From Tabrizicola sp. (GTDB taxonomy: Bacteria > Pseudomonadota > Alphaproteobacteria > Rhodobacterales > Rhodobacteraceae), in NCBI RefSeq assembly GCF_030373185.1, contig NZ_JAUCZH010000002.1:290151-354150 (forward strand): a DNA stretch of 64,000 nucleotides, in the 5' to 3' direction. How positions within the stretch are numbered: position 1 is the first letter of the stretch; the number at the start of each line of letters is the position of its first letter. This document shows, in pieces, positions 24,207-53,437 of the stretch. A program made the translations under genes and the position numbers. The notes beneath the pieces were generated by a model. The model saw only the letters and a program-made list of their open reading frames with translations, did no database searches and had not been told where the DNA came from.

Positions 24207-24231
24207 TGTCGCCAATCGGATTCATGTCCAG

Positions 24232-25518: not shown

Positions 25519-25521
25519 CCG

Positions 25522-35948: not shown

Positions 35949-37106
35949 ATGAACCGCATTGTCCGTTTGGAGACATTCCACAACGAGTTTGTTTGCTTCG
36001 TGCGTGTGACGGCAGAGGATGGAGCCGTCGGTTGGGGTCAAACTTCGACTTATAACGCCGATATCACGGCGCAGGTCTTTCACCGGCAGGTCGTCCCCTG
36101 GGCTCTGGGTGCCGACAGCGGTGATGTCGCCGGGCTTGTACACTTGATTGAGCGGCGCGAACACAAATACCCCGGAAGCTACCGCGCCCGTGCGCTTGCC
36201 GGTCTGGACACCGCTTTGTGGGATCTGGCCGGGAAGCGTGCTGGCAAGCCGGTCGCAAGCCTGATCGGCGGTGGGCCGGGGCCTGTGCGGGCCTATGCCA
36301 GTTCGATGAAGCGCGACATTTCGGCCAGAGACGAGGCCGAGCGGCTGGTGCGTCTTTGTGCCGAACAGGGTTTCACGGCGGCCAAATGGCGGATCGGCGC
36401 CGAATGCGGCGAAGACATCGACGAATGGCCCGGCAGGACAGAGGAGATCATTCCTGTTGTCTCGCGCGCCCTTGGCGATGGCATCGACAAGCTTGTCGAT
36501 GCCAATTCCGGCTTTTCGGTACCGCGTGCCATTGCGGTGGGCAGGATGCTGGAAGACAACGGTATCGGCCATTACGAGGAGCCGGTTCCCTACTGGGATC
36601 TTGAGGCCACGCGCGAAGTCACGGCGGCGCTCGACATTGATGTGACCGGCGGCGAACAGGACTGGGATTTGTCGACGTGGAAGCGCATCATCGACACGCG
36701 CGCCGTCGATGTGGTTCAGCCAGACATCATGTACATGGGCGGCCTGTCGCGCTCGCTTGAAGTGGCGCGCATGGCTGCGGCAGCAGGCCTGACCTGCACG
36801 CCGCATGCAGCCAATCTTTCGCTTGTCACGATCTGCACCATGCATCTGATGGCCGCGATTCCCAATGCCGGGAAGTACCTCGAACTGTCGATCGAGGGGG
36901 ATGACTACTACCCGTGGCAACGCGATCTGTTCCGCGGTCGCCCCTTCAAGGTCGTGGACGGCCATGTCACCGTGACCGACGCCCCCGGATGGGGTGTTGA
37001 CATAAGCCCCGCATGGCTCGACCGTGCCACTTACACCGAAGCCGCCATCGAGAGCTTCAGACCAAGCGCCTATGGCGCACTTTATTGCAAGGGAGGAAAA
37101 CCATGA
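35949..37106 (+). CDS. Mandelate racemase/MLE family enzyme (enolase superfamily)
   Basis: GLDTALWDLAGK, KWRIG, VDAN, YEEP, GGEQ, VVQPD, TPHAAN, PGWGV. Confidence 0.88.
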   Translation: MNRIVRLETFHNEFVCFVRVTAEDGAVGWGQTSTYNADITAQVFHRQVVPWALGADSGDVAGLVHLIERREHKYPGSYRARALAGLDTALWDLAGKRAGKPVASLIGGGPGPVRAYASSMKRDISARDEAERLVRLCAEQGFTAAKWRIGAECGEDIDEWPGRTEEIIPVVSRALGDGIDKLVDANSGFSVPRAIAVGRMLEDNGIGHYEEPVPYWDLEATREVTAALDIDVTGGEQDWDLSTWKRIIDTRAVDVVQPDIMYMGGLSRSLEVARMAAAAGLTCTPHAANLSLVTICTMHLMAAIPNAGKYLELSIEGDDYYPWQRDLFRGRPFKVVDGHVTVTDAPGWGVDISPAWLDRATYTEAAIESFRPSAYGALYCKGGKP

Positions 37107-38665
37107 CGAACACGATGACTCCGCGCGGGATGACCCGCCGCGGCATGTTGAAAAGCGGTATGGCCATGACGGCGGCCGGGCTGATCCTGCCGACCGGTAT
37201 GGCGATGGCTCAGTCAGAACCGAAAAAGGGCGGGGTGTTTCGCATCGGTCTCGGCCACGGCTCGACCACCGACAGCTACGATCCCGGCCTCTGGGACCAG
37301 CTCTATGTGCAGACCTTTGCTGCGGCGCGGGTCAACTATCTCATCGAGATTGCTGCCGACGGCAACCTTGCGCCCGAGCTTGCCGAAAGCTGGGATTCGA
37401 CCGATGGCGCCACCTGGGTGTTCAAGATCCGCGAAGGCGTCAGCTTCCATTCCGGCAAACCGATGACTCCCGATGACGTCGTGGCCTCGCTGAACCACCA
37501 CCGCGGCGACGCGTCGACTTCGGCGGTGAAGCCGTTCTTCGACCCGGTCACCGACATCAAGGTTGACGGGCAAAATGTCGTCGTCACCTTGAACGCGGCG
37601 AACGCCGACTTCCCCTATCTGATGTCGGACTATCACCTGCCCATCCTGCCAAGTGCCGAAGGCAAGATCGACCCCACCACTACCGATGGCACCGGCGGCT
37701 ATATCGTCGAGAGCTACGAGCCCGGCGTACAGGCGACGATGAATCGCAACCCGAACTACTGGAAGGCGGACCGGGCGCATTTCGACCAGATCATCATTCT
37801 GACCATCCTCGACCCGGCGGCACGTCTCAACGCCCTGATGACCGGCGAGGTGGACCTGATCGACCAGGTTGATCCGGCCGCGATTGCGCTGCTGGAAAGC
37901 CGTGGCGTGTCCAAGATCCTGTCGGTTTCGGGCAACGCACACTATGTCTTCCCGATGGATGCGCGCACTGCACCTTTCAACGACAACAACGTGCGTTTGG
38001 CTCTGAAATACGCCTTCGACCGTCAGGAGCTGGTCGACAAGATCCTTGCCGGTCACGGCTCGGTCGCCAATGACAACCCGATCGGCCCGGCGAACCGCTA
38101 CTACTTCGCCGAGATGGAGGCAAAGACCTACGATCCGGACAAGGCGAAGTTCCACCTCAAGGAAGCCGGTATGGACACGCTGGAGGTCACGCTGTCGGCC
38201 GCCAACGCCGCCTTCTCGGGCGCGGTCGATGCCGCTGTTCTGATGAGCGAAAAGGCCGCCGCTGCCGGCATCACGATCAATGTCGACCGGGTGCCGGACG
38301 ATGGCTACTGGGACAACGTCTGGATGAAGAAACCGTTCTGCGCGTCCTACTGGGGCGGCCGGCCGGTGGAAGACCAGATGTTCACCACCGCCTACGTCTC
38401 TGGCGCGGAGTGGAACGAGAGCTTCTGGTCGAACGAGTCCTTCGACAAGCTGCTCGTCGCCGCCCGGTCGGAACTGGACGACACCAAGCGCCGCGAGATG
38501 TATCAGGAAATGCAGCGGCTGGTGTCCTTTGAAGGCTCGACCATCATCCCGATGTACAACAACTATGTGATGGCCGTGGCAAACTCGGTCAGCACCCCCG
38601 AGAAGATCTCGGCCAACTGGAACCTTGACGGGTTCCGTTGCGTGGAGCGGTGGTGGTTCGCGTGA
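37103..38665 (+). CDS. ABC substrate-binding protein, family 5, TAT signal; copy 2
   Basis: GGGAGG RBS; MTRRGML leader; PELAESW, IREGVSFHSG, GTGGY, YWGGR. Confidence 0.92.
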   Translation: MTNTMTPRGMTRRGMLKSGMAMTAAGLILPTGMAMAQSEPKKGGVFRIGLGHGSTTDSYDPGLWDQLYVQTFAAARVNYLIEIAADGNLAPELAESWDSTDGATWVFKIREGVSFHSGKPMTPDDVVASLNHHRGDASTSAVKPFFDPVTDIKVDGQNVVVTLNAANADFPYLMSDYHLPILPSAEGKIDPTTTDGTGGYIVESYEPGVQATMNRNPNYWKADRAHFDQIIILTILDPAARLNALMTGEVDLIDQVDPAAIALLESRGVSKILSVSGNAHYVFPMDARTAPFNDNNVRLALKYAFDRQELVDKILAGHGSVANDNPIGPANRYYFAEMEAKTYDPDKAKFHLKEAGMDTLEVTLSAANAAFSGAVDAAVLMSEKAAAAGITINVDRVPDDGYWDNVWMKKPFCASYWGGRPVEDQMFTTAYVSGAEWNESFWSNESFDKLLVAARSELDDTKRREMYQEMQRLVSFEGSTIIPMYNNYVMAVANSVSTPEKISANWNLDGFRCVERWWFA

Positions 38666-38766
38666 TCCTTCGGATCTGACGACATGGCCCCGGCGGGTTC
38701 TGCCTGCCGGGGCCTTTCTGCCAATGCGGCGCAAAGACCGCAGGGCAAGAACAACGGCAAGCGGGG
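38624..38766. repeat. 143-bp perfect inverted repeat, partner at 26682-26824
   Basis: Direct comparison. Confidence 0.9.
38686..38719 (+). terminator. Stem-loop between the SBP and permease genes (attenuator or mRNA stabiliser)
   Basis: GGCCCCGGC...GCCGGGGCC-TTTCT. Confidence 0.55.
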
Positions 38767-38773
38767 GGATGGG

Positions 38774-39727
38774 ATGAACGATATCTGGCGAATGATCGGG
38801 CAGCGGCTGCTTTTGGGGGTTCTGACCCTGTTCATCATATCGGTGGTGATCTTCGGGGCGACCGAGCTTCTGCCGGGCGACCTTGCGCGTGAGCTTCTGG
38901 GCCAATCTGCGACCGAGGAAACCCTGGCCGCGCTGCGCGAGCAGCTGGGGCTCAATGATCCTGCACCCCTTCGCTACTGGAACTGGCTGACCGGCGTCTT
39001 GCAGGGCGATTTCGGCGTGTCGATGGCGACGCAAAAGCCGATATCGGAACTGGTCGGCACCCGGCTGGGCAACACGCTGTTCCTGGCGCTTTATGCTGCG
39101 GCCCTGTCGGTGCCGCTGTCTCTGCTGCTGGGCGTGCTGGCGGCCTTGTGGCGCAATTCGATCTTTGACCGCGCCTCGAACGCGCTGGCGCTGACGGCCA
39201 TCTCGTTCCCCGAATTCTTCGTGGCCTACATTCTTGTCCTGTGGCTGGCGCAGACCGGCATTTTCCCGTCGATGGTGCGCATCACCAGCGCGACGACGAC
39301 GGGCGATCTTCTCTATTCGGCTTTCCTACCGGCGCTGACGCTGACCCTTGTCGTCACCGCCCACATGATGCGGATGACGCGGGCGGCGATCATCAACCTT
39401 CTGGCCTCGCCCTATATCGAGATGGCCCGGCTGAAGGGCATGTCGCCGATGCGCGTCGTGCTGCGCCACGCGGTGCCGAACGCGCTGGCCCCGATCATCA
39501 ACGTGGTCGCGCTGAACCTTGCCTATCTCATTACGGGCGTAGTGGTGGTCGAGGTGGTCTTTGTCTACCCGGGCCTTGGCCAGTTGATGATCGACGCGGT
39601 CACCAACCGCGACATTGCGGTGGTGCAGGCCATCGCGCTGATCTTCGCGGCGGCCTATGTCCTGCTCAACCTTCTCGCGGATGTGCTCTCGACGATCACG
39701 AACCCGCGCCTGATGCACAGGAAGTAG
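38774..39727 (+). CDS. DppB/OppB-like permease
   Basis: LPGDLA, GDFGVS, EAA-loop region YIEMARLKG, HAVPNA, VEVVFVYPGLG. Confidence 0.92.
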   Translation: MNDIWRMIGQRLLLGVLTLFIISVVIFGATELLPGDLARELLGQSATEETLAALREQLGLNDPAPLRYWNWLTGVLQGDFGVSMATQKPISELVGTRLGNTLFLALYAAALSVPLSLLLGVLAALWRNSIFDRASNALALTAISFPEFFVAYILVLWLAQTGIFPSMVRITSATTTGDLLYSAFLPALTLTLVVTAHMMRMTRAAIINLLASPYIEMARLKGMSPMRVVLRHAVPNALAPIINVVALNLAYLITGVVVVEVVFVYPGLGQLMIDAVTNRDIAVVQAIALIFAAAYVLLNLLADVLSTITNPRLMHRK

Positions 39728-39731
39728 GGCC

Positions 39732-40646
39732 ATGACCATTCTTCTTTCCATCTTCATCGGGCTGGGCCTGTTCTTCCTCGTGGGCTTTGCTGGCCGGACC
39801 GCCCTTCATGCGGCGGCACCGGCCCATCACAAGCCCATGTTCCGCGACATGCCGCTAACCGCATCCTTCGGGCTGGCGGTGATCGCGATCTATGTCGTCG
39901 TGGCCATCCTTGCCCCGGTCATCGCCCCCTTCGGCGAGGGGCAGGTTCTGGGCGCCGCCTATCAGCCATGGGCAGCCCCCCATTACCTTGGGACGGACAA
40001 GCTGGGCCGTGACATGCTGACCCGCCTGATCTACGGCGCGCGCAATACCGTGGGCATCGCCTTTGCCACCACCGCGCTGGCCTTTGTCCTCGGGTCGGTC
40101 CTTGGCATCTGGGCGGCCTTGGTGGGTGGCCGCCTCGACCAGTGGATGTCGCGCTTTGTCGATGCGCTGATGGCCATTCCGGCGCTGATCTTCTCGCTTC
40201 TGCTCCTGACAATCTTCGGCACCTCGGTCCTGACGCTGATCCTTGTGATCGCCGCCGTCGATGCCACCCGCGTCTACCGCCTGGCCCGATCCGTCGCCCA
40301 GGGCATCGTGGTGATGGATTACATCGAGGCAGCACGCCTGCGCGGCGAAGGCATGTGGCGCCTGATCCGGCGCGAGATTCTTCCCAATGCGATGGCACCT
40401 CTGGTGGCCGAGTTCGGGCTGCGCTTCTGCTTTGTCTTCCTGTCGATCTCGGCGCTGTCGTTCCTTGGCCTTGGCATCAAGCCCCCCACCGCCGACTGGG
40501 GCTCCATGGTGCGCGAGAATGCCACGCTGATCACTTTCGGGGACATCACGCCCTTGCTGCCCGCCGGGGCCATCGCGCTCTTGACCGTGGCGGTGAACTT
40601 CGTGGTCGACTGGCAATTGCACCGCGCCAGCGGGTTGAAGGAGTAA
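39732..40646 (+). CDS. DppC/OppC-like permease
   Basis: LGTDKLGRDMLTRLIYGAR, YIEAARLRGE, LSFLGLG, PPTADWG. Confidence 0.92.
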   Translation: MTILLSIFIGLGLFFLVGFAGRTALHAAAPAHHKPMFRDMPLTASFGLAVIAIYVVVAILAPVIAPFGEGQVLGAAYQPWAAPHYLGTDKLGRDMLTRLIYGARNTVGIAFATTALAFVLGSVLGIWAALVGGRLDQWMSRFVDALMAIPALIFSLLLLTIFGTSVLTLILVIAAVDATRVYRLARSVAQGIVVMDYIEAARLRGEGMWRLIRREILPNAMAPLVAEFGLRFCFVFLSISALSFLGLGIKPPTADWGSMVRENATLITFGDITPLLPAGAIALLTVAVNFVVDWQLHRASGLKE

Positions 40647-40650
40647 GCCC

Positions 40651-42267
40651 ATGGAAAAACCGGTGCTTCTGACCATCAAGGGCATGCAGATCGAGGGGCG
40701 GTCCGGCGATGCCTGGCACCCGATCATCAAGGGTGTGGACCTGACCCTGCACAAGGGCGAGGTTCTGGGCCTGATCGGGGAATCCGGGGCGGGCAAGTCG
40801 ACGCTGGGTCTGGCCGCAATGGGCTTTGCCCGTGACGGCTGCCGCATCTCGGGCGGGACCATCGACTTTGACGGCATCGACCTGCGGACGGCGCCCGAGG
40901 CGGCGCGCCGGGGACTGCGCGGCAAGCGCATCGCCTATGTCGCGCAATCGGCGGCAGCGAGCTTCAACCCTGCGCACAAACTGATCGACCAGTATTGCGA
41001 GGGGCCTGTCGTGCATGGCGTCATGTCACGCGAAAAGGCCGAGGCCGACGCGGTAGAGCTTTACCGCCGCATGCGCCTGCCAAACCCCGAGGAGATCGGG
41101 TTCCGCTATCCGCATCAGGTCTCGGGCGGGCAGTTGCAGCGGGCTATGACGGCGATGGCCATGGCCTGCCGGCCTGACCTGATCATCTTCGACGAACCGA
41201 CCACCGCGCTGGACGTTACCACCCAGATCGAGGTGCTGGCCGCGATCCGTGATATCGTGCGCCAGTTCGGCACCGCGGCCATCTACATCACCCATGACCT
41301 TGCCGTGGTCGCCCAGATGGCCGACCGCATCAAGGTGCTCTTGCGCGGCGACGAGGTGGAGGAGGCCGATACCCGGTCGATGCTGGCCGCCCCGCGCGAG
41401 GACTACACCAAAAGCCTCTGGGCCGTGCGGAGCTTTGCCCGCACCGAACAGCCGCCCGCGACCGGAACGCCCGTCGTCTCGGTGCGCAACGTGACTGCGG
41501 CCTATGGTACGGTCGATGTGCTGAAAAATGTCAGTTTTGACATCCACGCCCGCCGCACCGTGGCCGTGGTCGGCGAAAGCGGGTCGGGCAAATCCACCAC
41601 GGCGCGGGTGATCACAGGCCTTCTGTCGCCGCGAAAGGGCGAAGTGCTGTTCAACGGCAAACCCTTGCCCCCCAGCTTCAAGGCCCGCTCGCGCGAGGAG
41701 TTGCGCCAGTGCCAGATGATCTACCAGATGGCCGACACCGCGCTGAACCCGAAACTGCGCCTGCGAGAGTTGATCGGGCGACCGGCCGAGATGTATCTGG
41801 GCCTGAAGGGCAAGGCGCTGGAAACCCGTATCCGTGACCTTCTGGCGCTGATCGAACTGGAACCGGACAAGTATATCGACCGGCTGCCGGGCGAACTTTC
41901 TGGCGGCCAGAAACAGCGCATCGGCATCGCCCGCGCCCTTGCCGCCGAGCCGCAGCTGATCATCTGCGACGAGGTGACCTCTGCGCTCGACCAGATCGTG
42001 CAGGAAGGCATCCTGAAACTGCTCGACCGCCTGCAAGGCGAGCTGAACCTCGCCTACATGTTCATCACGCATGACCTCGCCACAGTGAAATCCATCGCCG
42101 ACGAGGTGGTGGTCATGCAACACGGCGCCGTGGTCGAACGCGGACCAAAGGCAGAGCTCTTTGCCGATCCGAAGGAAGACTACACAAACCTCCTTCTTTC
42201 CTCCGTCCCGGAAATGGACCCCGACTGGCTGAATCGGCTGCTGGCAGAACGGGGCGAACTTGCGTGA
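40651..42267 (+). CDS. Fused DppD/DppF double-domain ABC ATPase
   Basis: Two Walker A motifs (GESGAGKS, GESGSGKS) and two signature motifs (SGGQLQR, SGGQKQR). Confidence 0.93.
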   Translation: MEKPVLLTIKGMQIEGRSGDAWHPIIKGVDLTLHKGEVLGLIGESGAGKSTLGLAAMGFARDGCRISGGTIDFDGIDLRTAPEAARRGLRGKRIAYVAQSAAASFNPAHKLIDQYCEGPVVHGVMSREKAEADAVELYRRMRLPNPEEIGFRYPHQVSGGQLQRAMTAMAMACRPDLIIFDEPTTALDVTTQIEVLAAIRDIVRQFGTAAIYITHDLAVVAQMADRIKVLLRGDEVEEADTRSMLAAPREDYTKSLWAVRSFARTEQPPATGTPVVSVRNVTAAYGTVDVLKNVSFDIHARRTVAVVGESGSGKSTTARVITGLLSPRKGEVLFNGKPLPPSFKARSREELRQCQMIYQMADTALNPKLRLRELIGRPAEMYLGLKGKALETRIRDLLALIELEPDKYIDRLPGELSGGQKQRIGIARALAAEPQLIICDEVTSALDQIVQEGILKLLDRLQGELNLAYMFITHDLATVKSIADEVVVMQHGAVVERGPKAELFADPKEDYTNLLLSSVPEMDPDWLNRLLAERGELA

Positions 42268-43012
42268 TCTGTCGGGCCTTGCCGCCCTTGTAACCGGCGG
42301 GGCGTCGGGCCTTGGCCTTGCCACGGCACAAATCCTCGCCGCTGCGGGCGCCCGGGTCGCGGCCCTTGACCTGCGGCCGGGCGAGGCAAGACCCGGTGTC
42401 CTGCCCGTTGCCTGTAATGTGGCGGACGAAGCCTCGGTCATCGCGGCGCTCGATGTGGCACAGGCCGCGCATGGTGTGGCGCGGATCGTGGTGAATTGCG
42501 CGGGCATACCGGGCTCGATGCGTCTGGTCGGGCGCGAAGGACCGGTGGACATGGCCCGGTTTTCGCAGGTGATCGGCGTCAATCTTCTGGGCACGGTCAG
42601 CGTAATGACCAAGGCCGCGGCCCGGATGATGACACTGGACCCGCTCGACCCGGACGCCGAGCGCGGGGTCATCGTCAACACGTCCTCGATCACCGCTTAC
42701 GAGGGGCAGATCGGTCAGGGGGCCTATGTCGCCTCGAAGGGCGCGATTGCCGCCATGACGATCCAGGCGGCGCGGGAGTTCGCGGCCAAGGGTGTTCGGG
42801 TTCTGGCCATCGCGCCCGGGCTTTTCCACACGCCCATGGCCGCAGAAGTCCCGCCCGAGGTGGTGGAAGCGATCACATCGGACGCGATCTTCCCCCGTCG
42901 CTTTGGTGAGCCGGAAGACTTCGCCGACCTCTGCCTGTCGATGATCCGCAACCCGATGCTGAACGGCGAGGTGATCCGGCTGGACGCCGGGGTGAGGTTG
43001 CGGGCGCATTAA
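42260..43012 (+). CDS. SDR, type II 3-hydroxyacyl-CoA dehydrogenase (HSD17B10-like)
   Basis: TGGASGLG, VVNCAGI, RGVIVNTSS, QIGQGAYVASKG, NPMLNGEVIRLD. Confidence 0.85.
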   Translation: MRDLSGLAALVTGGASGLGLATAQILAAAGARVAALDLRPGEARPGVLPVACNVADEASVIAALDVAQAAHGVARIVVNCAGIPGSMRLVGREGPVDMARFSQVIGVNLLGTVSVMTKAAARMMTLDPLDPDAERGVIVNTSSITAYEGQIGQGAYVASKGAIAAMTIQAAREFAAKGVRVLAIAPGLFHTPMAAEVPPEVVEAITSDAIFPRRFGEPEDFADLCLSMIRNPMLNGEVIRLDAGVRLRAH

Positions 43013-43035
43013 GCTGGCCCCGAACGCAGTATAGC

Positions 43036-43071
43036 TTGCAGTCTGCGCCATAACACTTGCGGATTGCGCCA
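43036..43071 (-). promoter_or_regulatory. Tandem 15-bp repeats with 21-bp period (AraC-type sites)
   Basis: Minus strand TGGCGCAATCCGCAA (43071-43057) and TGGCGCAGACTGCAA (43050-43036). Confidence 0.55.
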
Positions 43072-43135
43072 GGACCGTTGAATTCGGCCCACTTCCGCCG
43101 CAAGTCGCAACCAGACAGCGAAGGGGATACATGGC

Positions 43136-44143
43136 ATGGCGCAGGCCCCGCACTACCGGATCGGCAGCCTAGTTCGCTTTGCGGCGGCCAGGCTTGGTCT
43201 TTCGACAGCCCGCATTCTGGCGCGTGCGGGCCTGGCGGACGACCACCTTCAGCATGAGACGCGCGGGGTCGACGCGCGCGGCTGGTTTTCAGTCATCAAC
43301 GCCATTGCCACCGAGGCCGGGTCGCCCGATGTCGCGCTGACCCTGGGGCGGGAGGCCGCCAAGGGGCCGCTTCAACCGGCGATTCTGGCCTTTGCCGCCA
43401 GCCCCACGGTGGGCGAGGGATTGAGCCGGATCCAGCTTTTCAAACCCCTCATCGCCCCGATACGGCTGGCAATTGCCAAAGATGCCGACGGGCTTGCAGT
43501 GGAATTCCGCTCGGCAGACCCCGCCTGCCCCATCGGCGCGGTGACCGCAACGATGGAGATTGCCTATTTCGTCGAACTCACCCGCATCCTGACGGCCCAT
43601 CCGGTCATCCCCCGGCTGATCACCCTGCCCGATGCCGCGCGGGCGACACCTGCCTTCCGCGCCTTTGTCGGCAGCCCGCTTGCGACCGGTCCGACAACCC
43701 GCATCCTTCTGTCGCGGGAAGACGCGGAGCGCCATATCATTTCGGCCGATACCGGACTGCGGCGGATCATTGAAGCCGAACTATTCGCACGGCTGAAGAC
43801 TGTCGAGGATCCCCTGGCGCTGGCGGTCAGAGTCCGTCGCGAGATTGGTGCTGGCCTCGCATCGGGCCGGGTGTCGATCGACCATCTCAGCCGCCGTCTG
43901 GGGACCAGCCGACGCAGTCTGCAACGCAAGCTGGCCGGGGAGGGTACCTCGTTTCAGACCCTTCTGGACGAGACCCGAACCGAACTTGCGCTGGCCTATC
44001 TGCAAGACCAGAAGCTGACCGCCGAGGAGACGAGCTATCTGCTTGGCTTTGGCGACCCCAATTCCTTTTACCGGGCGTTCCTGGGCTGGACCGGCATGAC
44101 TCCGGCCACAGCCCGTGCCGCTGTCAGCCGGCGATTGGCGTGA
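43136..44143 (+). CDS. AraC-family regulator (OruR/ornithine-type N-terminal domain)
   Basis: C-terminal double HTH: LSRRLGTSRRSLQRKL..EG, LLGFGDPNSFYRAF..WTG.TP. Confidence 0.9.
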   Translation: MAQAPHYRIGSLVRFAAARLGLSTARILARAGLADDHLQHETRGVDARGWFSVINAIATEAGSPDVALTLGREAAKGPLQPAILAFAASPTVGEGLSRIQLFKPLIAPIRLAIAKDADGLAVEFRSADPACPIGAVTATMEIAYFVELTRILTAHPVIPRLITLPDAARATPAFRAFVGSPLATGPTTRILLSREDAERHIISADTGLRRIIEAELFARLKTVEDPLALAVRVRREIGAGLASGRVSIDHLSRRLGTSRRSLQRKLAGEGTSFQTLLDETRTELALAYLQDQKLTAEETSYLLGFGDPNSFYRAFLGWTGMTPATARAAVSRRLA

Positions 44144-44171
44144 TCGGTTATACCGCTGGCACCATCCGCAA
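44136..44171 (+). promoter_or_regulatory. Tandem 15-bp repeats with 21-bp period upstream of the SDR
   Basis: TGGCGTGATCGGTTA (44136) and TGGCACCATCCGCAA (44157), the same motif as at 43036-43071. Confidence 0.55.
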
Positions 44172-44228
44172 TTGTCCGGTATCCGCCCCGCGCCTAGCTC
44201 GGTCTGGTCAGAAGCCAAAGGAGCAGAC

Positions 44229-45047
44229 ATGACCAGCACTATCCTTATCACCGGCGCATCCAGCGGGATCGGCAGGGCCGCCGCCCGGCATTTCCATGAC
44301 AAGGGCTGGAACGTGGTTGCCACCATGCGCCGCCCCGAAGCCGATACCGCCCTTGCCGGGCTGGAGCGGGTTCTCGTCACCCGTCTGGATGTCGAGGATG
44401 CGGGCTCGATCACCCCGGCAATCGCAGCGGGGATCGCCCGGTTCGGCCGGATCGACGCGCTTTTGAACAACGCGGGCTACGGTGCCTATGGGCCGCTGGA
44501 GGCCACCCCGCCGGAAAAGATCCGTCGTCAGTTTGATGTCAACGTGATCGGCCTTCTCGCCGTTACGCAAGCCGTGCTGCCGCACTTTCGCAGGCAGCGT
44601 TCCGGGCTGATCCTGAATGTCTCGTCGATCGGGGGGCGGATGACCTTTCCGCTTGGCAGCCTTTACCACGGCACCAAGTTCGCTGTCGAAGGTCTGTCCG
44701 AGGCCCTGCATTACGAACTTTTGCCGCTGGGCGTCAGGGTCAAGATCATCGAGCCGGGCATGGTGCGCACCGATTTCGCCGGGCGGTCCTTTGACTTCAG
44801 CAATGATCCGGGCCTGACCGAGTATCAGCCGCTGGTGCAGGCGCTGATGACGGCTATGCCCGAGATGGCCGCGCAGGCTTCGACCCCCGAAGCCATTGCC
44901 GCCGAAATCTATGCTGCTGCAACCGACCCCGAAGACCGCCTTCGGTATGCCGCCGGACCGGACGCGGTTCAGATGCTTGCGGCACGGCAAGCGACCGATG
45001 ACGCCACCTTCCTTGCCGGCCTTCGCGCGCAGTTCGGCCTTGCCTGA
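44229..45047 (+). CDS. Short-chain dehydrogenase/reductase
   Basis: AAGGAG RBS; TGASSGIG, NNAGYG, YHGTK, IEPG. Confidence 0.9.
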   Translation: MTSTILITGASSGIGRAAARHFHDKGWNVVATMRRPEADTALAGLERVLVTRLDVEDAGSITPAIAAGIARFGRIDALLNNAGYGAYGPLEATPPEKIRRQFDVNVIGLLAVTQAVLPHFRRQRSGLILNVSSIGGRMTFPLGSLYHGTKFAVEGLSEALHYELLPLGVRVKIIEPGMVRTDFAGRSFDFSNDPGLTEYQPLVQALMTAMPEMAAQASTPEAIAAEIYAAATDPEDRLRYAAGPDAVQMLAARQATDDATFLAGLRAQFGLA

Positions 45048-45072
45048 TGCGATTGGCGGACGGGCCTGGATC

Positions 45073-45405
45073 TCAGGCTCGCCCGCCAGAACCATAGGGC
45101 ATCCGGGGTGGACTGATTTCGCGAAGGGTGGACTGCACGAAGTCCAGAAGAAACCGGATCTTGGCCGGATGCGCCCTGGTCGCGGTGACGGCGTATACCG
45201 GGACCGGGCGGATTGACCAATCCGGCAGGAGGCGCGTCAGTTGGCATTCCGCGACAAAACCAGAGCCCGGTCTTGGGTGTCTTCTTCCAGGCGATGGGGG
45301 CCGAAGGCGTGTTCGAAGCCTGTGCAAAGGGGAACCGGCGTTGATGGCTTCGCCCGGACCCAAGGGCGCTGATCTTTTGGCGGCAGGGCGACGGTGCTGG
45401 CCCAT
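45073..45405 (-). pseudogene. C-terminal remnant of a CrgA/DmlR-type LysR regulator
   Basis: LTRLLPDWSIRPVPVYAVTATRAHPAKIRFLLDFV is a typical LysR C-terminus; no HTH upstream. Confidence 0.65.
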
Positions 45406-45459
45406 GCCTTGCCTTGGGCAAGCAATAGGGCAGCGTATTGGCCGGGTAGTTGACCAGAT

Positions 45460-46347
45460 TCAAGCCTGACCCTTGGCGACTTCCGCCAGAAGCCAGTCGC
45501 GAAACGGCGTGGCATCTGGGTGGCCAAGACCTTCGTCGGGCGTCAGGATGTAGAAGGACTCCTCCACCGGGACCGAAAGCGTGAAGGGCCGAACCAGACG
45601 TCCCGAGCGCAACTCGGTCGCGGACATTGAAGTCCGGCCCAATGCCACGCCGCCACCATGAGCGGCAACTTCATAAGCCATGAGAGAGGAATCGAAATGC
45701 GCCCCTGATCCGGCATTGATCCTTGTCACCCCGGCCGCCGCGAGCCAGGTCGCCCAGCCTTCCTGATAACCAAGGACATGCAACAGCCGTTCAGCTTCCA
45801 GATCTTCGGGCGAATGAAGTCGCTTTGCGATTTCGGGCGCGCAGAGCGGTTCAAGGCTCTCCCAGCTTACCCGGTCAGCCCGAATGCCCGGCCATTTTCC
45901 GGTTCCATAGCGGATGTCCAGATCGTACCGCTCGGTTTCAGCTTCTTCGGACCAGACAGACGAAACGATCCTGACCGGAATTTGCGGACAGTGATCCATG
46001 AAGGCTGGAAGCCGTTCGGCAATCCAGTTCACCGCCCAACCGATTGGCGCGCGCACGGTCAGGATGCCCTTGCGCCGACCGCCAAAGACTTCGAGCGTTC
46101 CAGCGGACAACCTTTCGAAGGCGTCGTTCACCTTGGGCAGATAGGCAGCTCCGGCTTTGGTGAGTATCAGGCTGCGCGGCAGCCGCTCGAACAGCGGCTC
46201 GCGCAGATAATGCTCCAGAAGTTTGACCTGCTTTGATATGGCCGCCTGCGTCAGGTGGAGCTCGGTGGCGGCGTTCGTGAAACTGAGGTGCCGCGCAGAG
46301 GCCTCGAACGCCCGCAGCCACGGCAGTGGTGGCATCTGATGTCCCAT
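45460..46347 (-). CDS. LysR-family regulator (GcvA-like), paralog of 5687-6589
   Basis: MPPLPWLRAFEASARHLSFT; shared LLHVLGYQEGW motif. Confidence 0.9.
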   Translation of the reverse strand: MGHQMPPLPWLRAFEASARHLSFTNAATELHLTQAAISKQVKLLEHYLREPLFERLPRSLILTKAGAAYLPKVNDAFERLSAGTLEVFGGRRKGILTVRAPIGWAVNWIAERLPAFMDHCPQIPVRIVSSVWSEEAETERYDLDIRYGTGKWPGIRADRVSWESLEPLCAPEIAKRLHSPEDLEAERLLHVLGYQEGWATWLAAAGVTRINAGSGAHFDSSLMAYEVAAHGGGVALGRTSMSATELRSGRLVRPFTLSVPVEESFYILTPDEGLGHPDATPFRDWLLAEVAKGQA

Positions 46348-46511
46348 GACAGCGATCTCCCTCCTTCACAGAGCGCCTGGCGTGTTGCCGGCCAATTCCT
46401 GGCCTGAAAGAGACGCAGGTCATATCGTGGGCGAAGCTTAGCCCCCTTTTTCGTCATGTGTAAGTTGGTCTTGATGGGGCTACCCTTCAGCGACAGTCAA
46501 AAGAGTCAGCC

Positions 46512-48119
46512 ATGGACCCACGCTTCGACCTGAACATTCGGCAGATCCTGCATGCGCCGGCCGGACGCAATCCTGATCAGGTGATCGTCGATGGAAGCGG
46601 TCAGGCGCGGACCTACCGGATTTTTCACGAACGGATTGCCCGTCTGGCTGCGCTTCTGGTCGGCCAGGGGCTTGGTGAAGGCAAGACCATCGCCGTGATG
46701 GACTGGGACACCTCGCGCTATCTGGAGTGCTTCTTCGCCATTCCGATGGTTGGGGCGACGCTGCACACGGTCAATATCCGACTGGCGCCCGAGCAGATCA
46801 TTTTCACGATCAATCACGCCGAAGATGACGCGATCCTTTGTCATGAGGATTTCCTGCCCATCCTCCTGCCTTTGCTATCCCGGGTCGAGCGGCCGGTGAA
46901 ACTGATCCTTCTTGCCGAAGGCAAGCCTGCGGCTGTGCCAGAGGGATTCATTGGCGAATATGAAACTCTTCTGGCGGAACAGCCGGTCGCTTTCGACTTT
47001 CCTGCCCTGCCCGAGGAGACAAGGGCGACCCTGTTTTACACCACCGGAACAACAGGCGATCCCAAGGGGGTGAGTTACACCCATCGCCAGTTGGTCCTGC
47101 ATACGCTTGCCCTCGCGGCTGACCTTGGCACGGTTCCCGGAAAAGGCGGCCTCAAACGCGATGACGTCTACATGCCGATCACGCCGCTGTTCCACGTCCA
47201 TGGCTGGGGCTTTCCCTATATCGCCACCTTCCTCGGCCTGAAGCAGGTCTATCCCGGCCGCTATGATCCCGCACGGCTGCTGGCTTTGATCCGGGACCAC
47301 GGCGTCACCTTCTCGCATTGCGTGCCGACGATCCTGGCCATGGTCATTGGAGCGCCCGAAGCGGCCGCCACCGACCTGACGGGATGGAAGGTGCTGATCG
47401 GTGGCTCTGCCTTGTCAGAAGGGCTGGCCGGTCAGGCGCGCGCGCATGGCATTGATGTGCATGCGGCCTACGGCATGTCCGAAACCTGCCCCTTCGTCAC
47501 GCATGCCGACATGGTGGCCAGCCAGACCAGCGATGACCTGACCCTCCGCACGGCAACGGGACGGCCGTCGCCCCTGGTCGAGGTTCGTGTGGTGGACCCG
47601 GACATGGCGGATGTCCCGAAGGATGGCGCGACCACTGGCGAGATCGTTGCCCGTGCGCCATGGCTGACCCAAGGCTATCTCAAGAACGTCAGCGCAAGTG
47701 CCGATCTCTGGCAGGGAGGCTGGCTGCATACGGGCGATGTCGGGCATCTGTCCCCGGATGGCACCTTGCGCATCACCGACCGGCTGAAGGACGTGATCAA
47801 GTCGGGCGGCGAATGGGTATCTTCTCTGACCCTTGAAAACCTTGCCTCCACCGTGCCGGGCCTGATCGAGGTCGCCGCCGTCGGGGTTCCAGACTCTCGC
47901 TGGGGCGAACGGCCGGTCCTTGTGGCGGTGATGGAGCCGTCAGATTCCGTCGGGACCGCCATCCGGCAAAAGATCAGCGCGGCAATCGAACGGGGCGAGT
48001 TGCCAAAATGGGCCAACCCGGACCGGATCTGTCGGGTTGCCGCCCTGCCCCGTACCTCGGTCGGAAAGATCGACAAGAAACGTATTCGCCAGATGCTGGA
48101 AAGCGGAGAAATCGCCTGA
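46512..48119 (+). CDS. Medium/long-chain fatty acid-CoA ligase (AlkK/DmdB2-related)
   Basis: [46 protein letters not shown]. Confidence 0.88.
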
Positions 48120-49303
48120 TGCGGGAAGCCGTCATCGTATCCTTTGCCCGTACGCCCATCGGGCTGGCCTACAAGGGCAGCCTGAACAACGTCAAATCCC
48201 CGACCCTTGCCGCCCATGCCATTTCGGCCGCGATCAGCCGGGCCGGGATAGATCCGGGCGAGGTCGAGGATCTGGTCATGGGAAGCGTCCTGACCGCAGG
48301 CACCGCCGCGATGAACCTTGGCCGTCTCGCCGCCCTTGCGGCAGGGCTTCCGGTCAGCGTTTCGGGCCAGACCGTGGACCGGCAATGCGCGTCGGGCCTT
48401 CAGGCCATCGCCATCGCGGCCCATGCCATCGAACAGGGCGGGATGGATGTCGTCATCGCGGCGGGGCAAGAGAATGTCTCGGCCATTCAGACGCCCTACT
48501 TTGATTGGGCCTTCCGCGACCTTGACCCGGCCGTAACCGCGCAGCAGCCGATGGCCTATCTGCCAATGCTCGATACGGCGGAGGCTGTCGCAAAGGTCTG
48601 GGGCGTCAGCCGTGAGGCACAGGACGAATTCGCGCTTCAATCGCAGCGGAAGGTCGCTGCGGCGCAGGAGGCGGGCCGGTTCGATGCCGAGATCGTGCCA
48701 GTGACGGCAACACGGTTGGTCAAGGACAAGGCTACCGGTGACCTTCGCTCCGAACTGGTCACGCTTTCCAAGGACGAAGGAAACCGCCCGCAGACCACCG
48801 CCGAAGGACTTGCCGCGCTGAAGCCAGTGCGCGACGGTGGCCTTGTCACCGCAGGCAATGCCAGTCAGTTGTCGGACGGGGCCGCAGCCATGGTCCTGAT
48901 GGAGCGCCGGGCTGCCGAGCGCCGCAATCTGCCGATCCTTGGGGCCTTGCGCATGATGGCGGTGGCGGGCTGTCCGCCCGAACACATGGGCATCGGCCCG
49001 ATCCACGCGGTTCCGCGCCTGATGCAACGCACAGGCCGCCGCGTCGCGGACATCGACCTTTGGGAGTTGAACGAGGCCTTTGCGGCGCAGGCCCTGCCAT
49101 GCATCGCCGAGCTTGGCCTTGATCCTGCCCGCGTGAATGTCGACGGCGGCGCGATCTCGGTTGGCCATCCTTACGGGATGACCGGGGTTCGGCTTGCCGG
49201 ACACGTCTTGCTGGAGGGCCGCAGCCGGGGTGCATCCCAAGGCGTCGTGACCATGTGTGTGGGTGGCGGGATGGGCGCCGCCGGCCTCTTCGAGATCGCA
49301 TGA
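48119..49303 (+). CDS. Acetyl-CoA C-acyltransferase (thiolase)
   Basis: [22 protein letters not shown]. Confidence 0.92.
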
Positions 49304-49499
49304 GGCACGGCATGACGAAATCGGGGCCTTAGCGTGAAAACCGGTTGTTTGAACTTCTGGTCAATGCTGGCCAACGTAGGGTCATGCAGACCGGGGGTCG
49401 GCCTGCAATCCCTGTCAGTTGATCTGGCACACCTTCCTGCCGATTGGGTGCCAATCCAGTCGGCAGGGGTTTTCAACAAGGCAAGCAAGGAAAAGGCAG

Positions 49500-50549
49500 A
49501 TGAAGTACGAAAGGATCACACCCACGTCGATCATTGCTGCGTTCCTCGCCATCCTCGGGACGCCGCTAATTGCCGAAACGCCCAGCGAAGGGTGCGGCAA
49601 GGCCGTTCCAGCGAGCGGCGCCTTCCAGTTGCCCGACGGGGAACAGACCCGGACCTGGCGGCTCCATGTTCCTGCCGGGGTCGACGCGGCCCAGCCTGCG
49701 CCGCTGGCGCTAATCTTCCATGGCTGGGGCGAGGATGAGAATGCGTTTCTAGATGTACCCGTCGTCACCGCCGAAGCCGACCTGAAGGGTTTTTACCTGG
49801 CAGCGGCGCGCGGGGTCGGATCGGAAGGCGGTGATGAAAGTTACAACTCCTGGACCTTCAGCGGCTCGGCCACCGGCATCGGTGGCGACGGTCAGCCCAT
49901 CTGCTCGGGCGCCGAGACGAACTATTCCTACAAGTCATGCGGCCCGTTGGGTGAAGGCGTGGCCCAGAACGGCTGTTCCTGGACCCAATGCCAGACCGAT
50001 GATGCGGCCTTTGTAAGCACCCTGATCGCCGAGATCGGCAAGTCGGCCTGCATCGACCTTGACCGGGTTTTCATGGCTGGCGGCTCGAATGGCGGGATGT
50101 TCACCTGGGACATGGGTCAAACCCCGGCCGTTGCCAGCCAACTTCGTGCCATCGCGCCGCTGATCGGGCTGCCGCATCGCGGCTTTCTGGAAGGACCCGG
50201 TCGGCCCGATGGGCTGCCGGTGCTGCTCATTACCGGCGTGGACGATCCGACCGTTCCGCCTGGCACATGGGACGAGACCGGGTTCACAACCACCGCTGAC
50301 ACGGATCTCTACCACTACACCGGTGCCGGGGCGATCACCGATGTCTGGGCTAATGCGCAGGGCTGCACCGCCGAGTTGGCGAAGGTCGACTTCGGGGCAG
50401 AAGGCATCGAATGCCGCTCTTCTTGCGCACCGGACGGGTCGGGGCTGCCACCTGTTCTCGATTGCCGGGCGAACATGGCACATGACTACGACCTGGAAAA
50501 AACCTGGCCGATGATCCTGGATTTCTTCGCAAACCAGCCCCCCCGCTGA
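49500..50549 (+). CDS. Exported esterase, LpqC/PHB-depolymerase-like
   Basis: Signal peptide; FHGWG, DDAAFV, GGSNGG nucleophile, DPTVP, C-terminal His (MAHDY); Cys-rich. Confidence 0.75.
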   Translation: MKYERITPTSIIAAFLAILGTPLIAETPSEGCGKAVPASGAFQLPDGEQTRTWRLHVPAGVDAAQPAPLALIFHGWGEDENAFLDVPVVTAEADLKGFYLAAARGVGSEGGDESYNSWTFSGSATGIGGDGQPICSGAETNYSYKSCGPLGEGVAQNGCSWTQCQTDDAAFVSTLIAEIGKSACIDLDRVFMAGGSNGGMFTWDMGQTPAVASQLRAIAPLIGLPHRGFLEGPGRPDGLPVLLITGVDDPTVPPGTWDETGFTTTADTDLYHYTGAGAITDVWANAQGCTAELAKVDFGAEGIECRSSCAPDGSGLPPVLDCRANMAHDYDLEKTWPMILDFFANQPPR

Positions 50550-50572
50550 CAGCCATATGACCGGAGTTTCAA

Positions 50573-51676
50573 TTGTACGGCATCACGCCCTCTGCCCGCC
50601 TGCGGCCGTCGCCCTTCTACGAGGCGACGGTTCGCGAAGGGGTCACCAACTTTACCACCTACAACCACATGCTGATGCCAACCGCCTTCGGCAACCCTGA
50701 AGCCGAATACTGGCGCTTGATCAACGGAGTCAGCCAATGGGACGTTGCGGTGGAACGCCAGGTCCAGTTGAAAGGCCCCGACGCAGGCAGGCTGGCGCAG
50801 ATCCTCGCCCCCCGCGATCTGGCGAAACAGAAGGTCGGGCAAGGGAAATACGTTCCGCTCTGCAATCATCAAGGCATTCTCATCAACGATCCGATCTGCC
50901 TGAAGCTGGCCGACGACCTGTATTGGCTGTCGATTGCTGACAGCAACATCTGGTTCTGGGCCGGGGCCATCGCCGCAGAGCGGGGTCTGCGCGTCGAGGT
51001 CAGCGAACCCGATGTCTCGCCCATGGCCATCCAAGGACCGAAGGCCGAGGACGTCGTTGCCCATGTCTGTGGCGACTGGGTGCGTGACGTGAAGTACTTC
51101 TGGTTCCGCGAGACGGACATCAACGGCATCCCCGTTGTAGTGCAGCGATCCGGCTGGTCGAAACAGGGCGGGTTCGAGATCTACCTGCGCGACGGGACCA
51201 AGGGCGCCCGGCTCTGGAACATCTTCCGCGAGGCTGGCCAGCCCTGGGGCATCGGCCCGGGCGGACCCAACTGGTGCGAACGGGTCGAGTCGGGGTTGAT
51301 TTCCTATGGCGGGGACACAGACGCCACCACGAACCCGTTCGAGGTTCGGATGGGCAAGTTTGTCGATCTGCATGTGCCAGATGACACCATCGGCATCCAG
51401 GCCTTGCGCGTAGTGGCCACCGAAAGGCCCAAGCGGCATTCGCTGGGGGTTGTTCTGGATGCAGGCGACCCGGTGGCGCCAGGCTTTCATTGGAACCCGG
51501 TTTTCATGGACGGAAAGAAGGTTGGCTGCATGACCAACTGCATCTTTTCCTACCGGATGAAGAAGAACATCGGGTTTGCCCTGATCGATGCCGACTGCGC
51601 CATCGGGGACCGGGTCGAAACCCGGGTCAGCGGTGCGATGCAGCCCGGCGAGCTGACCGACCTACCCTTCCTGTGA
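50573..51676 (+). CDS. DmdA-like THF-dependent demethylase (GcvT family), copy 2
   Basis: TTG start with GGAG RBS; YNHM, WDVAVERQV, EPDVSP, RSGWSKQGGFEIY, PNWCERVESGLISYG. Confidence 0.85.
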   Translation: MYGITPSARLRPSPFYEATVREGVTNFTTYNHMLMPTAFGNPEAEYWRLINGVSQWDVAVERQVQLKGPDAGRLAQILAPRDLAKQKVGQGKYVPLCNHQGILINDPICLKLADDLYWLSIADSNIWFWAGAIAAERGLRVEVSEPDVSPMAIQGPKAEDVVAHVCGDWVRDVKYFWFRETDINGIPVVVQRSGWSKQGGFEIYLRDGTKGARLWNIFREAGQPWGIGPGGPNWCERVESGLISYGGDTDATTNPFEVRMGKFVDLHVPDDTIGIQALRVVATERPKRHSLGVVLDAGDPVAPGFHWNPVFMDGKKVGCMTNCIFSYRMKKNIGFALIDADCAIGDRVETRVSGAMQPGELTDLPFL

Positions 51677-51772
51677 AATCATGAATGACTTCATGCGCAA
51701 TCCCCGTGACCTGCCCCCCGGAAGTTCCCTCAGTCTGATGTAGAGTCTGCCCAACCTGAGGGAGCAGACGAC

Positions 51773-52039
51773 ATGAGGAAAAGCCGTTTCACCGAGGCGC
51801 AGATTATCGGAATGATCAAGGAGCACGAGGCCGGGATTTCCGTCGCCGATCTGTGCCGCAAGCATGGCGTCAGTGATGCGACCGTTTACAAGTGGAAGGC
51901 CAAGTATGGCGGCATGGATGTCAGCGAGGCCAAACGGCTGAAGGGTCTCGAGGACGAGAACGCGCGCCTGAAACGGCTCCTCGCCGATGCGATGCTCGAC
52001 AATGCCGCGCTGAAGGATCTCTTGGGAAAAAAGTGGTGA
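51773..52039 (+). CDS. IS3 transposase OrfA
   Basis: [44 protein letters not shown]. Confidence 0.92.
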
Positions 52040-52962: not shown

Positions 52963-52980
52963 AAGCTGGGGGCAACGTCA

Positions 52981-53424: not shown

Positions 53425-53437
53425 AAGGGCACCGCCA

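Follow-up and report, generated by a model that had tools for sequence, protein, structure and literature searches.

Systems related to the locus

The demethylation of dimethylsulfoniopropionate (DMSP) is encoded by dmdA-dmdB-dmdC-dmdD/acuH in Ruegeria pomeroyi and Pelagibacter ubique. The only reaction known for DmdA-type enzymes is the transfer of a methyl group from a sulfonium compound (PMC5395565). A further arrangement, dmdR beside a dmdE-dmdF-dinB-dmdA-acuI operon, has been described in Ruegeria lacuscaerulensis and other roseobacters, in a paper that mentions neither thiolase nor freshwater (EMBO J 2026, PMC12992908). Here we examined a window of 64,000 nucleotides (contig NZ_JAUCZH010000002.1, positions 290,151 to 354,150 of the forward strand; C2:290151-354150) from the 3.6-Mb genome of Tabrizicola sp. 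GCF_030373185.1, which has 63% G+C and belongs to a freshwater lineage whose closest relatives come from lakes. In this window a DmdA-like gene, dmdA2, shares an operon with the genes of a CoA ligase (ligase2), a thiolase and an exported esterase, and a second operon encodes an enolase-superfamily enzyme, a Dpp/Opp-type importer and a short-chain dehydrogenase/reductase (SDR1). As an overall explanation, which we favour tentatively and at somewhat less than even weight, the region would be a horizontally acquired, mosaic two-operon cassette for the breakdown of a DMSP-type sulfonium acid.

Compared with dmdA-dmdB-dmdC-dmdD/acuH, the locus likewise has a GcvT-fold, putatively tetrahydrofolate-dependent demethylase with the Trp/Glu/Tyr block and a CoA ligase in the same operon, and relatives of the locus carry genes of a DmdC-like acyl-CoA dehydrogenase (ACAD) and a DmdD-like enoyl-CoA hydratase (ECH) downstream. 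It differs in that DmdA2 falls under the model cut-off in a separate clade and that ligase2 is not the equivalog of the methylmercaptopropionate (MMPA)-CoA ligase; the thiolase, the exported esterase, the HADH2-like SDR, the enolase-superfamily enzyme and the Dpp importer are extra here. The dmdR-type operon is matched by dmdE-dmdF-acuI following dmdA2 relatives in five surveyed loci (L004, L008, L106, L107, L191) and by the left-hand operon of the window, which has the same genes with dmdA1. Unlike that operon, the locus has a GcvA-like LysR instead of DmdR, and the dmdEF and acuI genes of the window lie outside the dmdA2 operon. With fadBA/FadD beta-oxidation the locus shares a ligase, a FadA-subfamily thiolase, whose nearest homologues follow FadB, and putatively a 3-hydroxyacyl-CoA dehydrogenase. 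However, there is no FadB, hydratase or ACAD in the window cassette, the HADH2-type SDR lies in the neighbouring operon, and a demethylase is embedded among these genes.

A conserved two-operon cassette

Through comparison of the window proteins with Pfam, NCBIfam and the PDB, all genes listed in the original prediction, which had been made from the letters of the sequence, were found in place and apparently intact (Table 1). The regulator LysR2 diverges from the genes of the ligase, thiolase, exported esterase and DmdA2, and the enolase-Dpp-SDR1 operon converges on it, as that prediction had described. The supposed linkage also extends to related genomes. In a tblastn and blastn survey of loci fetched via DmdA2 and via the enolase gene, the order enolase-Dpp-SDR1, LysR2, ligase-thiolase-hydrolase-dmdA2 was kept in at least nine relatives at 72-85% nucleotide identity, with the enolase-Dpp-SDR1 operon and LysR2 standing tail to tail. 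The relatives with the full gene order were L007 (partial), L008, L009, L110, L116, L117, L118, L120 and L122, and they include Alitabrizicola rongguiensis, a Pseudogemmobacter sp. and lake metagenome contigs. The arrangement is therefore not one of chance neighbours. Since the genes left of the enolase gene differ among the relatives while the block itself is conserved, the block was apparently inherited or moved as a unit. It is highly probable that the DmdA-type sulfonium module is real and was transferred as a unit.

Within the genus, a survey of 36 congeneric species recovered no thiolase orthologue in any of them and a dmdA2-type gene in three, each in a different layout: one is accompanied by ligase2 and the oxidoreductase found after dmdA2 in other relatives, one by ligase2 and the esterase and one by dmdEF-acuI. 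Two of these three congeners carry an enolase orthologue a few kb upstream. Because the thiolase occurs in no congener and the dmdA2-type gene in only three, acquisition by transfer is indicated, and the locus is best described as a mosaic that appears to move horizontally. An insertion sequence (IS) and duplicated fragments elsewhere in the window fit such a mosaic. One locus, L001, lacks SDR1, the ligase and thiolase, and the esterase; it retains the enolase gene, the Dpp genes, LysR2 and dmdA2, with the promoter box described below fused to the last ~25 thiolase codons. We read L001 as a deletion derivative, which fits the lost genes working together.

The spacer between LysR2 and ligase2 holds the box CTTAGCCCCCTTTTTCGTCATGTGTAAGTTGG, which hardly varies among 13 of 14 relatives regardless of the downstream genes and is weakest in L004. 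It has no second copy in the window or in the rest of the genome and is probably the promoter plus a LysR2 site. Scanning the sequence for promoter and terminator consensus gave nothing exceeding chance. A LysR2 operator shared with the regions upstream of the enolase operon or dmdA1 was also looked for and was not found. LysR2 itself is 55% identical to LysR1, and its score against the GcvA-type model NF008352 (282.6 bits) is just under the cut-off of 288.

The six genes of the enolase operon overlap or lie 4 nt apart, except for a 108-nt gap upstream of the first permease gene; the SDR1 and ATPase genes overlap by 8 nt, as they do in L008. The importer is of Dpp/Opp type, with a family-5 binding protein, two BPD_transp_1 permeases and an ATPase with an oligo_HPY tail. 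For the binding protein no NCBIfam equivalog reached its cut-off, and its best PDB match was AapF (124 bits). A paralogue that is 61% identical lies at 26783-28408.

Table 1. Positions of the cassette genes, the events around them and the operons used for comparison (window coordinates unless a locus is named)
Feature	Position	Strand	Basis or remark
Enolase-superfamily enzyme, mandelate-racemase subgroup type	35949-37106	+	MR_MLE_N/C; first gene of import/processing operon (35949-43012, +)
Family-5 (Dpp/Opp-type) periplasmic binding protein	37103-38665	+	SBP_bac_5, 257.7 bits; Tat-type leader
Two ABC permeases	38774-39727, 39732-40646	+	BPD_transp_1, BPD_transp_1_N
Fused double ABC ATPase	40651-42267	+	Two ABC_tran stretches; oligo_HPY tail
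SDR1, type II 3-hydroxyacyl-CoA dehydrogenase-like	42260-43012	+	PDB matches, motifs
2.47-kb insertion	43008-45481	+	AraC 43136-44143 (+), SDR2 44229-45047 (+); absent from nine relatives
LysR2, GcvA-like regulator	45460-46347	-	HTH_1, LysR_substrate; divergent from ligase operon
Conserved 32-nt box	46437-46468	+	LysR2-ligase2 spacer; resembles -35, 17 nt, extended -10
Ligase2, AMP-type acyl-CoA ligase	46512-48119	+	NF004837, 564 bits (cut-off 476); dmdB position in relatives
3-Ketoacyl-CoA thiolase, degradative FadA subfamily	48119-49303	+	TIGR01930, 406 bits (cut-off 240)
Exported serine esterase	49500-50549	+	Signal-peptide-like N-terminus, GGSNG motif; distantly PHB-depolymerase/feruloyl-esterase-like
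DmdA2, GcvT-fold, predicted THF-dependent demethylase, non-canonical clade iii	50573-51676	+	GCV_T, GCV_T_C; ~367 aa
First ~8 codons of FAD_oxidored (PF12831) gene	51681-51704	+	Synteny with L007, L008 to 51694
IS3-family element	~51705-52979	+	orfA 51773-52039, orfB to 52962; rve, rve_3, HTH_21
Inverted remnant of operon-terminal SDR	53445-53915	-	72% nucleotide identity to L009 16290-16698
Cupin-FadB-FadA operons	L101 8318-16228; L194 5240-14521; L195 5236-11999		Marine roseobacters

DmdA2 and its clade

The host genome contains three DmdA-like genes, all under the 410-bit cut-off of the DmdA model NF009133. DmdA2 scores 367.4 bits, compared with 643-686 bits for the canonical DmdA of Ruegeria and Pseudogemmobacter. 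Its identity is 37% with P. ubique DmdA and 42-44% with the canonical roseobacter enzymes, values close to the 42-46% found among the validated DmdAs themselves. In the tree, dmdA1 and dmdA2 fall into one clade (clade iii; 93 rows, SH-aLRT 98) hosted by Alpha-, Beta- and Gammaproteobacteria that live in lakes and soil and, in some cases, in the sea. P. ubique and canonical roseobacter DmdA form another clade (support 99), and the clade of the third copy also stands apart. Aligned to 3TFH, DmdA2 keeps the Trp/Glu/Tyr block SGWSKQGGFEIY with the contact residues of the SGWSKQGGYEVY block; the roles of the folate and DMSP contacts and the residues reported as DMSP-specific follow PMC7487153.

Members of clade iii are linked to dmdB/C/D, acuI or dmdEF, and in the window operon the ligase is the only such partner. 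A Marivivens plasmid, for instance, has dmdA divergent from a LysR gene and followed by a ligase, an ACAD and dmdD (as named by the PGAP annotation), and other members stand in operons of ligase2, dmdA, dmdE, dmdF and acuI divergent from a LysR gene. Because the members occur mostly in ordinary dmdB/C/D or dmdEF-acuI operons, DmdA2 is taken to be a DMSP-type sulfonium demethylase with DMSP as its default substrate. Ruegeria faecimaris, R. alba and Pseudogemmobacter each carry a canonical DmdA plus a clade iii copy, which is compatible with different substrates for the two.

It was noted that the genome has a third demethylase module (G000 C6:47400-52200; L006 7446-12199), comprising an AsnC regulator, DmdA-like copy 3, OsmC, an ECH and an AMP ligase. 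Copy 3 scores 375 bits, falls in a clade of its own and has orthologues in Ruegeria alba and Pseudogemmobacter. A cupin DMSP_lyase gene (PF16867, 144 bits) lies at C3:291819-292238, and given its presence the organism probably cleaves as well as demethylates DMSP.

Possible coupling of beta-oxidation genes to the demethylase

Ligase2 has an intact catalytic signature and scores 358.5 bits against the MMPA-CoA ligase equivalog NF005426, which has a cut-off of 822. Its PDB matches include AasS (8HSY, 535 bits) and the DmdB of R. lacuscaerulensis (6IHK, 307 bits), and it is the sole ligase in operons of the LysR-ligase-dmdA-dmdEF-acuI type. Its stop codon and the start codon of the thiolase gene share one base. 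The thiolase has the intact triad Cys90, His350 and Cys380 and falls into a distinct subfamily of the tree, at only 38-41% identity to the other thiolases of the genome; the remaining members of this subfamily follow FadB. SDR1, which the original prediction had called a type II 3-hydroxyacyl-CoA dehydrogenase (HADH), does find its nearest solved relatives there (1UAY, 196 bits; human HSD10, ~190 bits; 1U7T and 4XGN within 189-196 bits), against at most 118 bits for FabG structures. It carries the motifs TGGASGLG, Asp37 (NAD-type) and Y156-x3-K160, and from these features it is classed as HADH2-like and NAD-type, although no curated NCBIfam model matched it over its cut-off.

An aromatic or ferulate-type route was discarded. 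The demethylase gives 39-44 bits with the LigM and DesA models compared with 367 for DmdA, and ligase2 gives 153 bits with feruloyl-CoA synthetase 8WEV compared with 535 for AasS.

Between the thiolase gene and dmdA2, the hydrolase varies from relative to relative. The window, L007, L008 and L031 (there in inverted orientation) have an exported GxSxG esterase, whose orthologues were found in L007, L008, L190 and L031 and whose matches to described proteins are weak (NF050058, PDB 9J07). L009, L010 and L013 have a 600-aa exported SxxK protein in the same slot, and the Ruegeria and Rhizobium clusters instead have a beta-lactamase-fold hydrolase beside the transporter genes. Together, these hydrolases suggest that the route includes the hydrolysis of an ester or amide.

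The linkage of these genes to a demethylase gene recurs in several forms. The thiolase and a hydrolase stand between ligase2 and dmdA2, behind the one conserved promoter box, in at least nine relatives. Independently, Ruegeria faecimaris (L030) and also Rhizobium sp. FKL33 (L081) have a ligase2-like gene (62-64% identity), thiolase (63-65%), a binding-protein gene and DmdA in this order, opposite Dpp-type permease and ATPase genes; an ECH and an ACAD then follow in L081. DmdC-like ACAD and DmdD-like ECH genes are found downstream in the same operon in Pseudogemmobacter and Rhizobium, where their products could finish MMPA-CoA.

A parallel case, for which no published account turned up, was found in marine roseobacters. 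In genome G103, Tritonibacter mobilis and Leisingera thetidis, an AMP ligase gene divergent from a LysR gene begins a tight operon with a DMSP-lyase-family cupin (PF16867), FadB and FadA, the ligase belonging to the same NF004837 subfamily and FadA to the same thiolase subfamily as in the window. An OpuAC-type or family-5 importer lies beside these operons, T4SS or transposase genes lie around them, and AraC and ACAD genes follow FadA in two of the three. Like the window, this operon combines a GcvA-like LysR, the two enzyme subfamilies, a nearby osmolyte-type or family-5 importer and a DMSP-type enzyme amid beta-oxidation genes; unlike it, it has a cupin lyase for DmdA, FadB for the SDR, and neither an enolase-superfamily enzyme nor an esterase. 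The AraC gene of the window is not an orthologue of the one following fadA, as only the helix-turn-helix region is alike.

The enolase-superfamily enzyme

The enolase-superfamily enzyme of the import operon scores 538-561 bits against PDB entries 3T9P, 3TCS, 3U4F and 3T8Q, which were deposited under the generic names mandelate racemase/muconate lactonizing enzyme family protein and putative racemase; a search of the literature on these four entries found nothing relevant. Its best NCBIfam matches are acid-sugar dehydratases, far under their cut-offs. K146-x-R148, D184, E210, E236, D259 and H286 are invariant across 89 homologues and conform to the mandelate-racemase subgroup, with carboxylates as the three metal ligands, a His/Asp pair on strands 7 and 6, and K146-x-R148 in place of KxK. 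If the residues have the roles usual in the superfamily, such an active site is closer to those of one-base dehydratases or lyases than to those of racemases.

This family recurs beside onium demethylases. A GcvT-fold gene was present in 17 of the 47 enolase-anchored loci of at least 8 kb, compared with ~6% expected, and the enolase gene adjoins a clade iii DmdA gene in unrelated Alpha- and Betaproteobacteria (L013, L027, L031, L036, L107, L175). An AcuI-like gene lies directly upstream of it in L159, L161, L163, L172 and L179. From its recurrence in these settings, the substrate of the enzyme is apparently a methylated onium acid or the carbon skeleton of one. Betaine catabolic clusters with an enolase-superfamily enzyme exist, an example being HpbD, a 4-hydroxyproline betaine 2-epimerase. 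The locus is like such clusters in placing the enzyme beside an importer and onium demethylases, and differs in that the window enzyme has K-x-R and a His/Asp pair of the one-base type, not the two lysines of the epimerases.

A 72%-identical orthologue (~10001-11100) was seen in six lake metagenome contigs (L147, L151, L152, L153, L154, L157), where it is flanked by an SDR and a HIBADH-like gene. The island around it encodes three MttB-family methyltransferases, three DMGDH-like FAD+GcvT enzymes, a protein with a homocysteine S-methyltransferase domain, GFA and CobS/CobT. The idea that the window enzyme is the only DMSP lyase of the organism is weakened by the cupin DMSP_lyase gene.

Proposed route and competing explanations

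The genes and their catalytic motifs, the synteny, the phylogeny and the co-occurrences were observed directly, as were the insertion, the deletion and the IS event; the substrate, the reaction order and the effector of LysR2 are inferences. LysR2 would control the operon of the dmdB-like CoA ligase and the non-canonical DmdA. The substrate may first be freed from an ester in the periplasm; DmdA2 would pass one S-methyl group to tetrahydrofolate, and ligase2 would convert the methylthio-acid product to its CoA ester. In the reading that we find most likely, SDR1 and the thiolase would then close a single beta-oxidation turn on this ester by catalysing its final two reactions. The natural substrate would in that case exceed DMSP by two carbons, carry a 3-hydroxyl group, or both, and its shortening would give MMPA-CoA and acetyl-CoA. 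The breakdown would be completed by enzymes of DmdC and DmdD type, whose genes belong to the same operon in relatives and are also present elsewhere in this genome, and the enolase-superfamily enzyme of the six-gene operon is predicted to be of dehydratase or lyase type.

That a DMSP-type demethylase is coupled to beta-oxidation for a relative of DMSP, as the original prediction had proposed, is plausible and draws independent comparative support from Ruegeria faecimaris, Rhizobium and the cupin operons; nothing in these data identifies the substrate as gonyol, the compound that prediction had put forward. We give a little short of an even chance to the beta-oxidation enzymes acting on the carbon skeleton of the sulfonium compound. 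Chain-shortening of a C5 or 3-hydroxy homologue, as one form of this, is a possibility that we regard as doubtful. Broader still is the idea of an undescribed pathway wiring DMSP-type enzymes (DmdA; a DddL-like cupin) to a beta-oxidation turn for longer or hydroxylated sulfonium osmolytes such as gonyol, with the enolase family supplying a novel dehydratase or lyase whose substrates would be onium, thioether or hydroxy acids with a beta substituent. Such an enzyme would explain the recurrence of the family beside three mechanistically different kinds of onium demethylase, and yet we consider the whole of this scheme unlikely.

Several observations weigh against coupling the two operons in one sulfonium pathway. 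Plain DMSP demethylation would explain the core, and the closest clade members of DmdA2 lie in operons without the thiolase (L004, L106, L107, L189-L191). SDR1 and the thiolase were found together only in the nine close relatives; L004 and L106 have SDR1 without the thiolase, and L030 and L081 the thiolase without SDR1. Across 200 genera, the best thiolase homologues are not beside a DmdA-like gene and belong to ordinary fadBA genes, which rules out a universal DmdA linkage of thiolase orthologues. The enolase gene, present in 53 of the 201 genera of the host family and mostly unlinked to DmdA there, is far commoner in the family than clade iii DmdA and adjacent to it only here and in genome G012. 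The LysR2 box has no second copy ahead of the enolase operon. In the proposed scheme the exported esterase and the enolase-superfamily enzyme have no role, and a hydrolysis step is not predicted by the gonyol version.

The locus may simply hold a second DMSP demethylation operon (dmdB-dmdA), with the thiolase, esterase, SDR1 and enolase-Dpp operon as a separate unit alongside, for example for uptake and oxidation of 3-hydroxyalkanoate oligomers by the polyhydroxybutyrate (PHB)-depolymerase-like esterase, CoA ligase, HADH and thiolase. Clade iii DmdA and a ligase2-type ligase do make complete DMSP-type operons without a thiolase, L001 retains dmdA2 after losing other genes, the esterase has weak PHB-depolymerase matches, the thiolase subfamily is otherwise ordinary fadBA, and the enolase family is mostly unlinked to DmdA. 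We nevertheless judge this account rather unlikely, because the thiolase and hydrolase sit inside the ligase2-dmdA2 unit behind one promoter box in at least nine relatives, the operon has no ligase besides ligase2, the combination of ligase, thiolase and DmdA arose with another gene order in Ruegeria faecimaris and in Rhizobium, and the pairing of ligase and thiolase recurs with a DMSP-lyase-family cupin. A nitrogen betaine, for example a carnitine-like or C5 one, seems highly improbable as the substrate. The enolase relative inside MttB/DMGDH-type islands with an SDR and a HIBADH-like gene and a BetI-type TetR elsewhere in the window would suit one; however, clade iii is linked to dmdB/C/D, dmdEF and acuI, DmdA-type methyl transfer is described from sulfonium only (PMC5395565), and the residues reported as DMSP-specific are kept (PMC7487153).

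With gonyol (5-dimethylsulfonio-3-hydroxypentanoate) as the substrate, demethylation and CoA activation would precede oxidation by SDR1, and the thiolase would release MMPA-CoA and acetyl-CoA, a sequence that needs exactly the enzymes present, with no ACAD and no hydratase, and a one-base enolase-superfamily enzyme could perhaps dehydrate or epimerise the beta-hydroxy acid. It is widespread in haptophytes and dinoflagellates, surveyed in marine ones, and was metabolised by all four bacteria tested, by routes that are not known (PMC7221440); this wide occurrence and turnover speak for it. Among the 20 top-ranked of 36 papers mentioning gonyol, none deals with genes for its catabolism, and combined searches likewise gave nothing. 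We still hold gonyol itself to be quite unlikely as the substrate, since the lineage and its closest relatives come from lakes, no methanethiol was released from gonyol by R. pomeroyi, Sulfitobacter or Halomonas (PMC7221440), the exported esterase is left without explanation, the thiolase is missing from the congeners, and the ACAD and ECH of the Rhizobium and Pseudogemmobacter versions fit a saturated chain or MMPA-CoA equally well. The left-hand operon, which the original prediction had finish MMPA-CoA, does contain ligase1, AcuI and a DmdD-like ECH but no DmdC. Very unlikely, too, is a route on DMSP itself in which the beta-oxidation enzymes act on acryloyl-CoA and methylthioacryloyl-CoA (MTA-CoA). 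Hydration, with oxidation by SDR1 or FadB in the acrylate branch, would give 3-oxopropionyl-CoA, which the thiolase would split into acetyl-CoA and formyl-CoA. On DMSP, MMPA or 3-hydroxypropionate, the enolase-superfamily enzyme would act either as a lyase, by beta-elimination, or as a hydratase. The ligase-cupin-FadB-FadA operon can be read as DMSP to acrylate to acryloyl-CoA to beta-oxidation, the AcuI-like gene just upstream of the enolase gene in five loci agrees with it, and the one-base active site may be typical of a dehydratase. However, we know of no report of thiolysis of 3-oxopropionyl-CoA, L008, L009 and L081 have, besides the thiolase, a DmdD-type ECH by which MTA-CoA is already taken care of, and a cupin DMSP lyase is encoded at another place in the genome.

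Analogues of DMSP, among them gonyol and dimethylsulfonioacetate, are consumed by bacteria, and these compounds influence the release of dimethylsulfide and methanethiol; genes for their catabolism are not described in the literature searched. We found no published description of this cassette layout, nothing relevant on DmdA plus thiolase or dddL plus thiolase, and no gonyol catabolic genes, in agreement with the original prediction. The cassette and the parallel DddL-type operon provide defined sets of genes for work in culture, where the available carriers include Alitabrizicola rongguiensis J26, Pseudogemmobacter sp. W21_MBD1_M6, Ruegeria faecimaris DSM 28009 and Tritonibacter mobilis. As a large lake and soil clade of DmdA-like proteins lies under the annotation cut-off, organosulfur demethylation outside the sea may be under-counted. 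For the enolase-superfamily family with its four generically named structures, the locus gives a functional lead.

Insertion and truncation of the cassette

The AraC-SDR2 pair, which the original prediction had thought to look inserted, is absent from the nine relatives. Synteny with all of them stops at 43007 and resumes at ~45482, two points that lie 30-100 bp apart in the relatives, and the pair is therefore read as an insertion between the convergent stop codons of SDR1 and LysR2, outside the ancestral cassette.

Downstream of dmdA2, a single-copy IS3-family element, with its ends placed by matches to contig ends C9 and C11, cuts the gene of a PF12831 oxidoreductase after ~8 codons and truncates the dmdA2 operon. 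In relatives, dmdA2 is followed at 4-8 nt spacing by the complete gene of this FAD-dependent oxidoreductase and then by that of a 165-167-aa protein (L008 11109-12973, L009 11112-12976, L189, L190). The small protein has no Pfam match and also occurs in the Ruegeria alba cluster (L024 3039-3533). These two proteins might replace DmdC or perform a second demethylation. After the small protein come dmdE-dmdF-acuI-ECH in L008 and ACAD-ECH-SDR in L009. The inverted remnant beyond the IS has 74% amino-acid identity to residues 135-293 of the terminal SDR of Pseudogemmobacter. Also beyond the IS, an RraA-like gene is N-terminally truncated (52904-53503), and a chimeric reading frame (53438-54217, -) joins an AAA_34 fragment to the SDR remnant.

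Left of the cassette, the stretch 22995-31247 contains a second enolase-superfamily gene (22995-24206), which is not a paralogue of the first (27% identity), an Abhydrolase_3 esterase gene (24610-25518), the BetI-type TetR gene (25522-26259), an orphan family-5 binding-protein gene (26783-28408), permease and ATPase gene fragments, and genes of a matB/matA-like ligase and malonyl-CoA decarboxylase (28471-31247).

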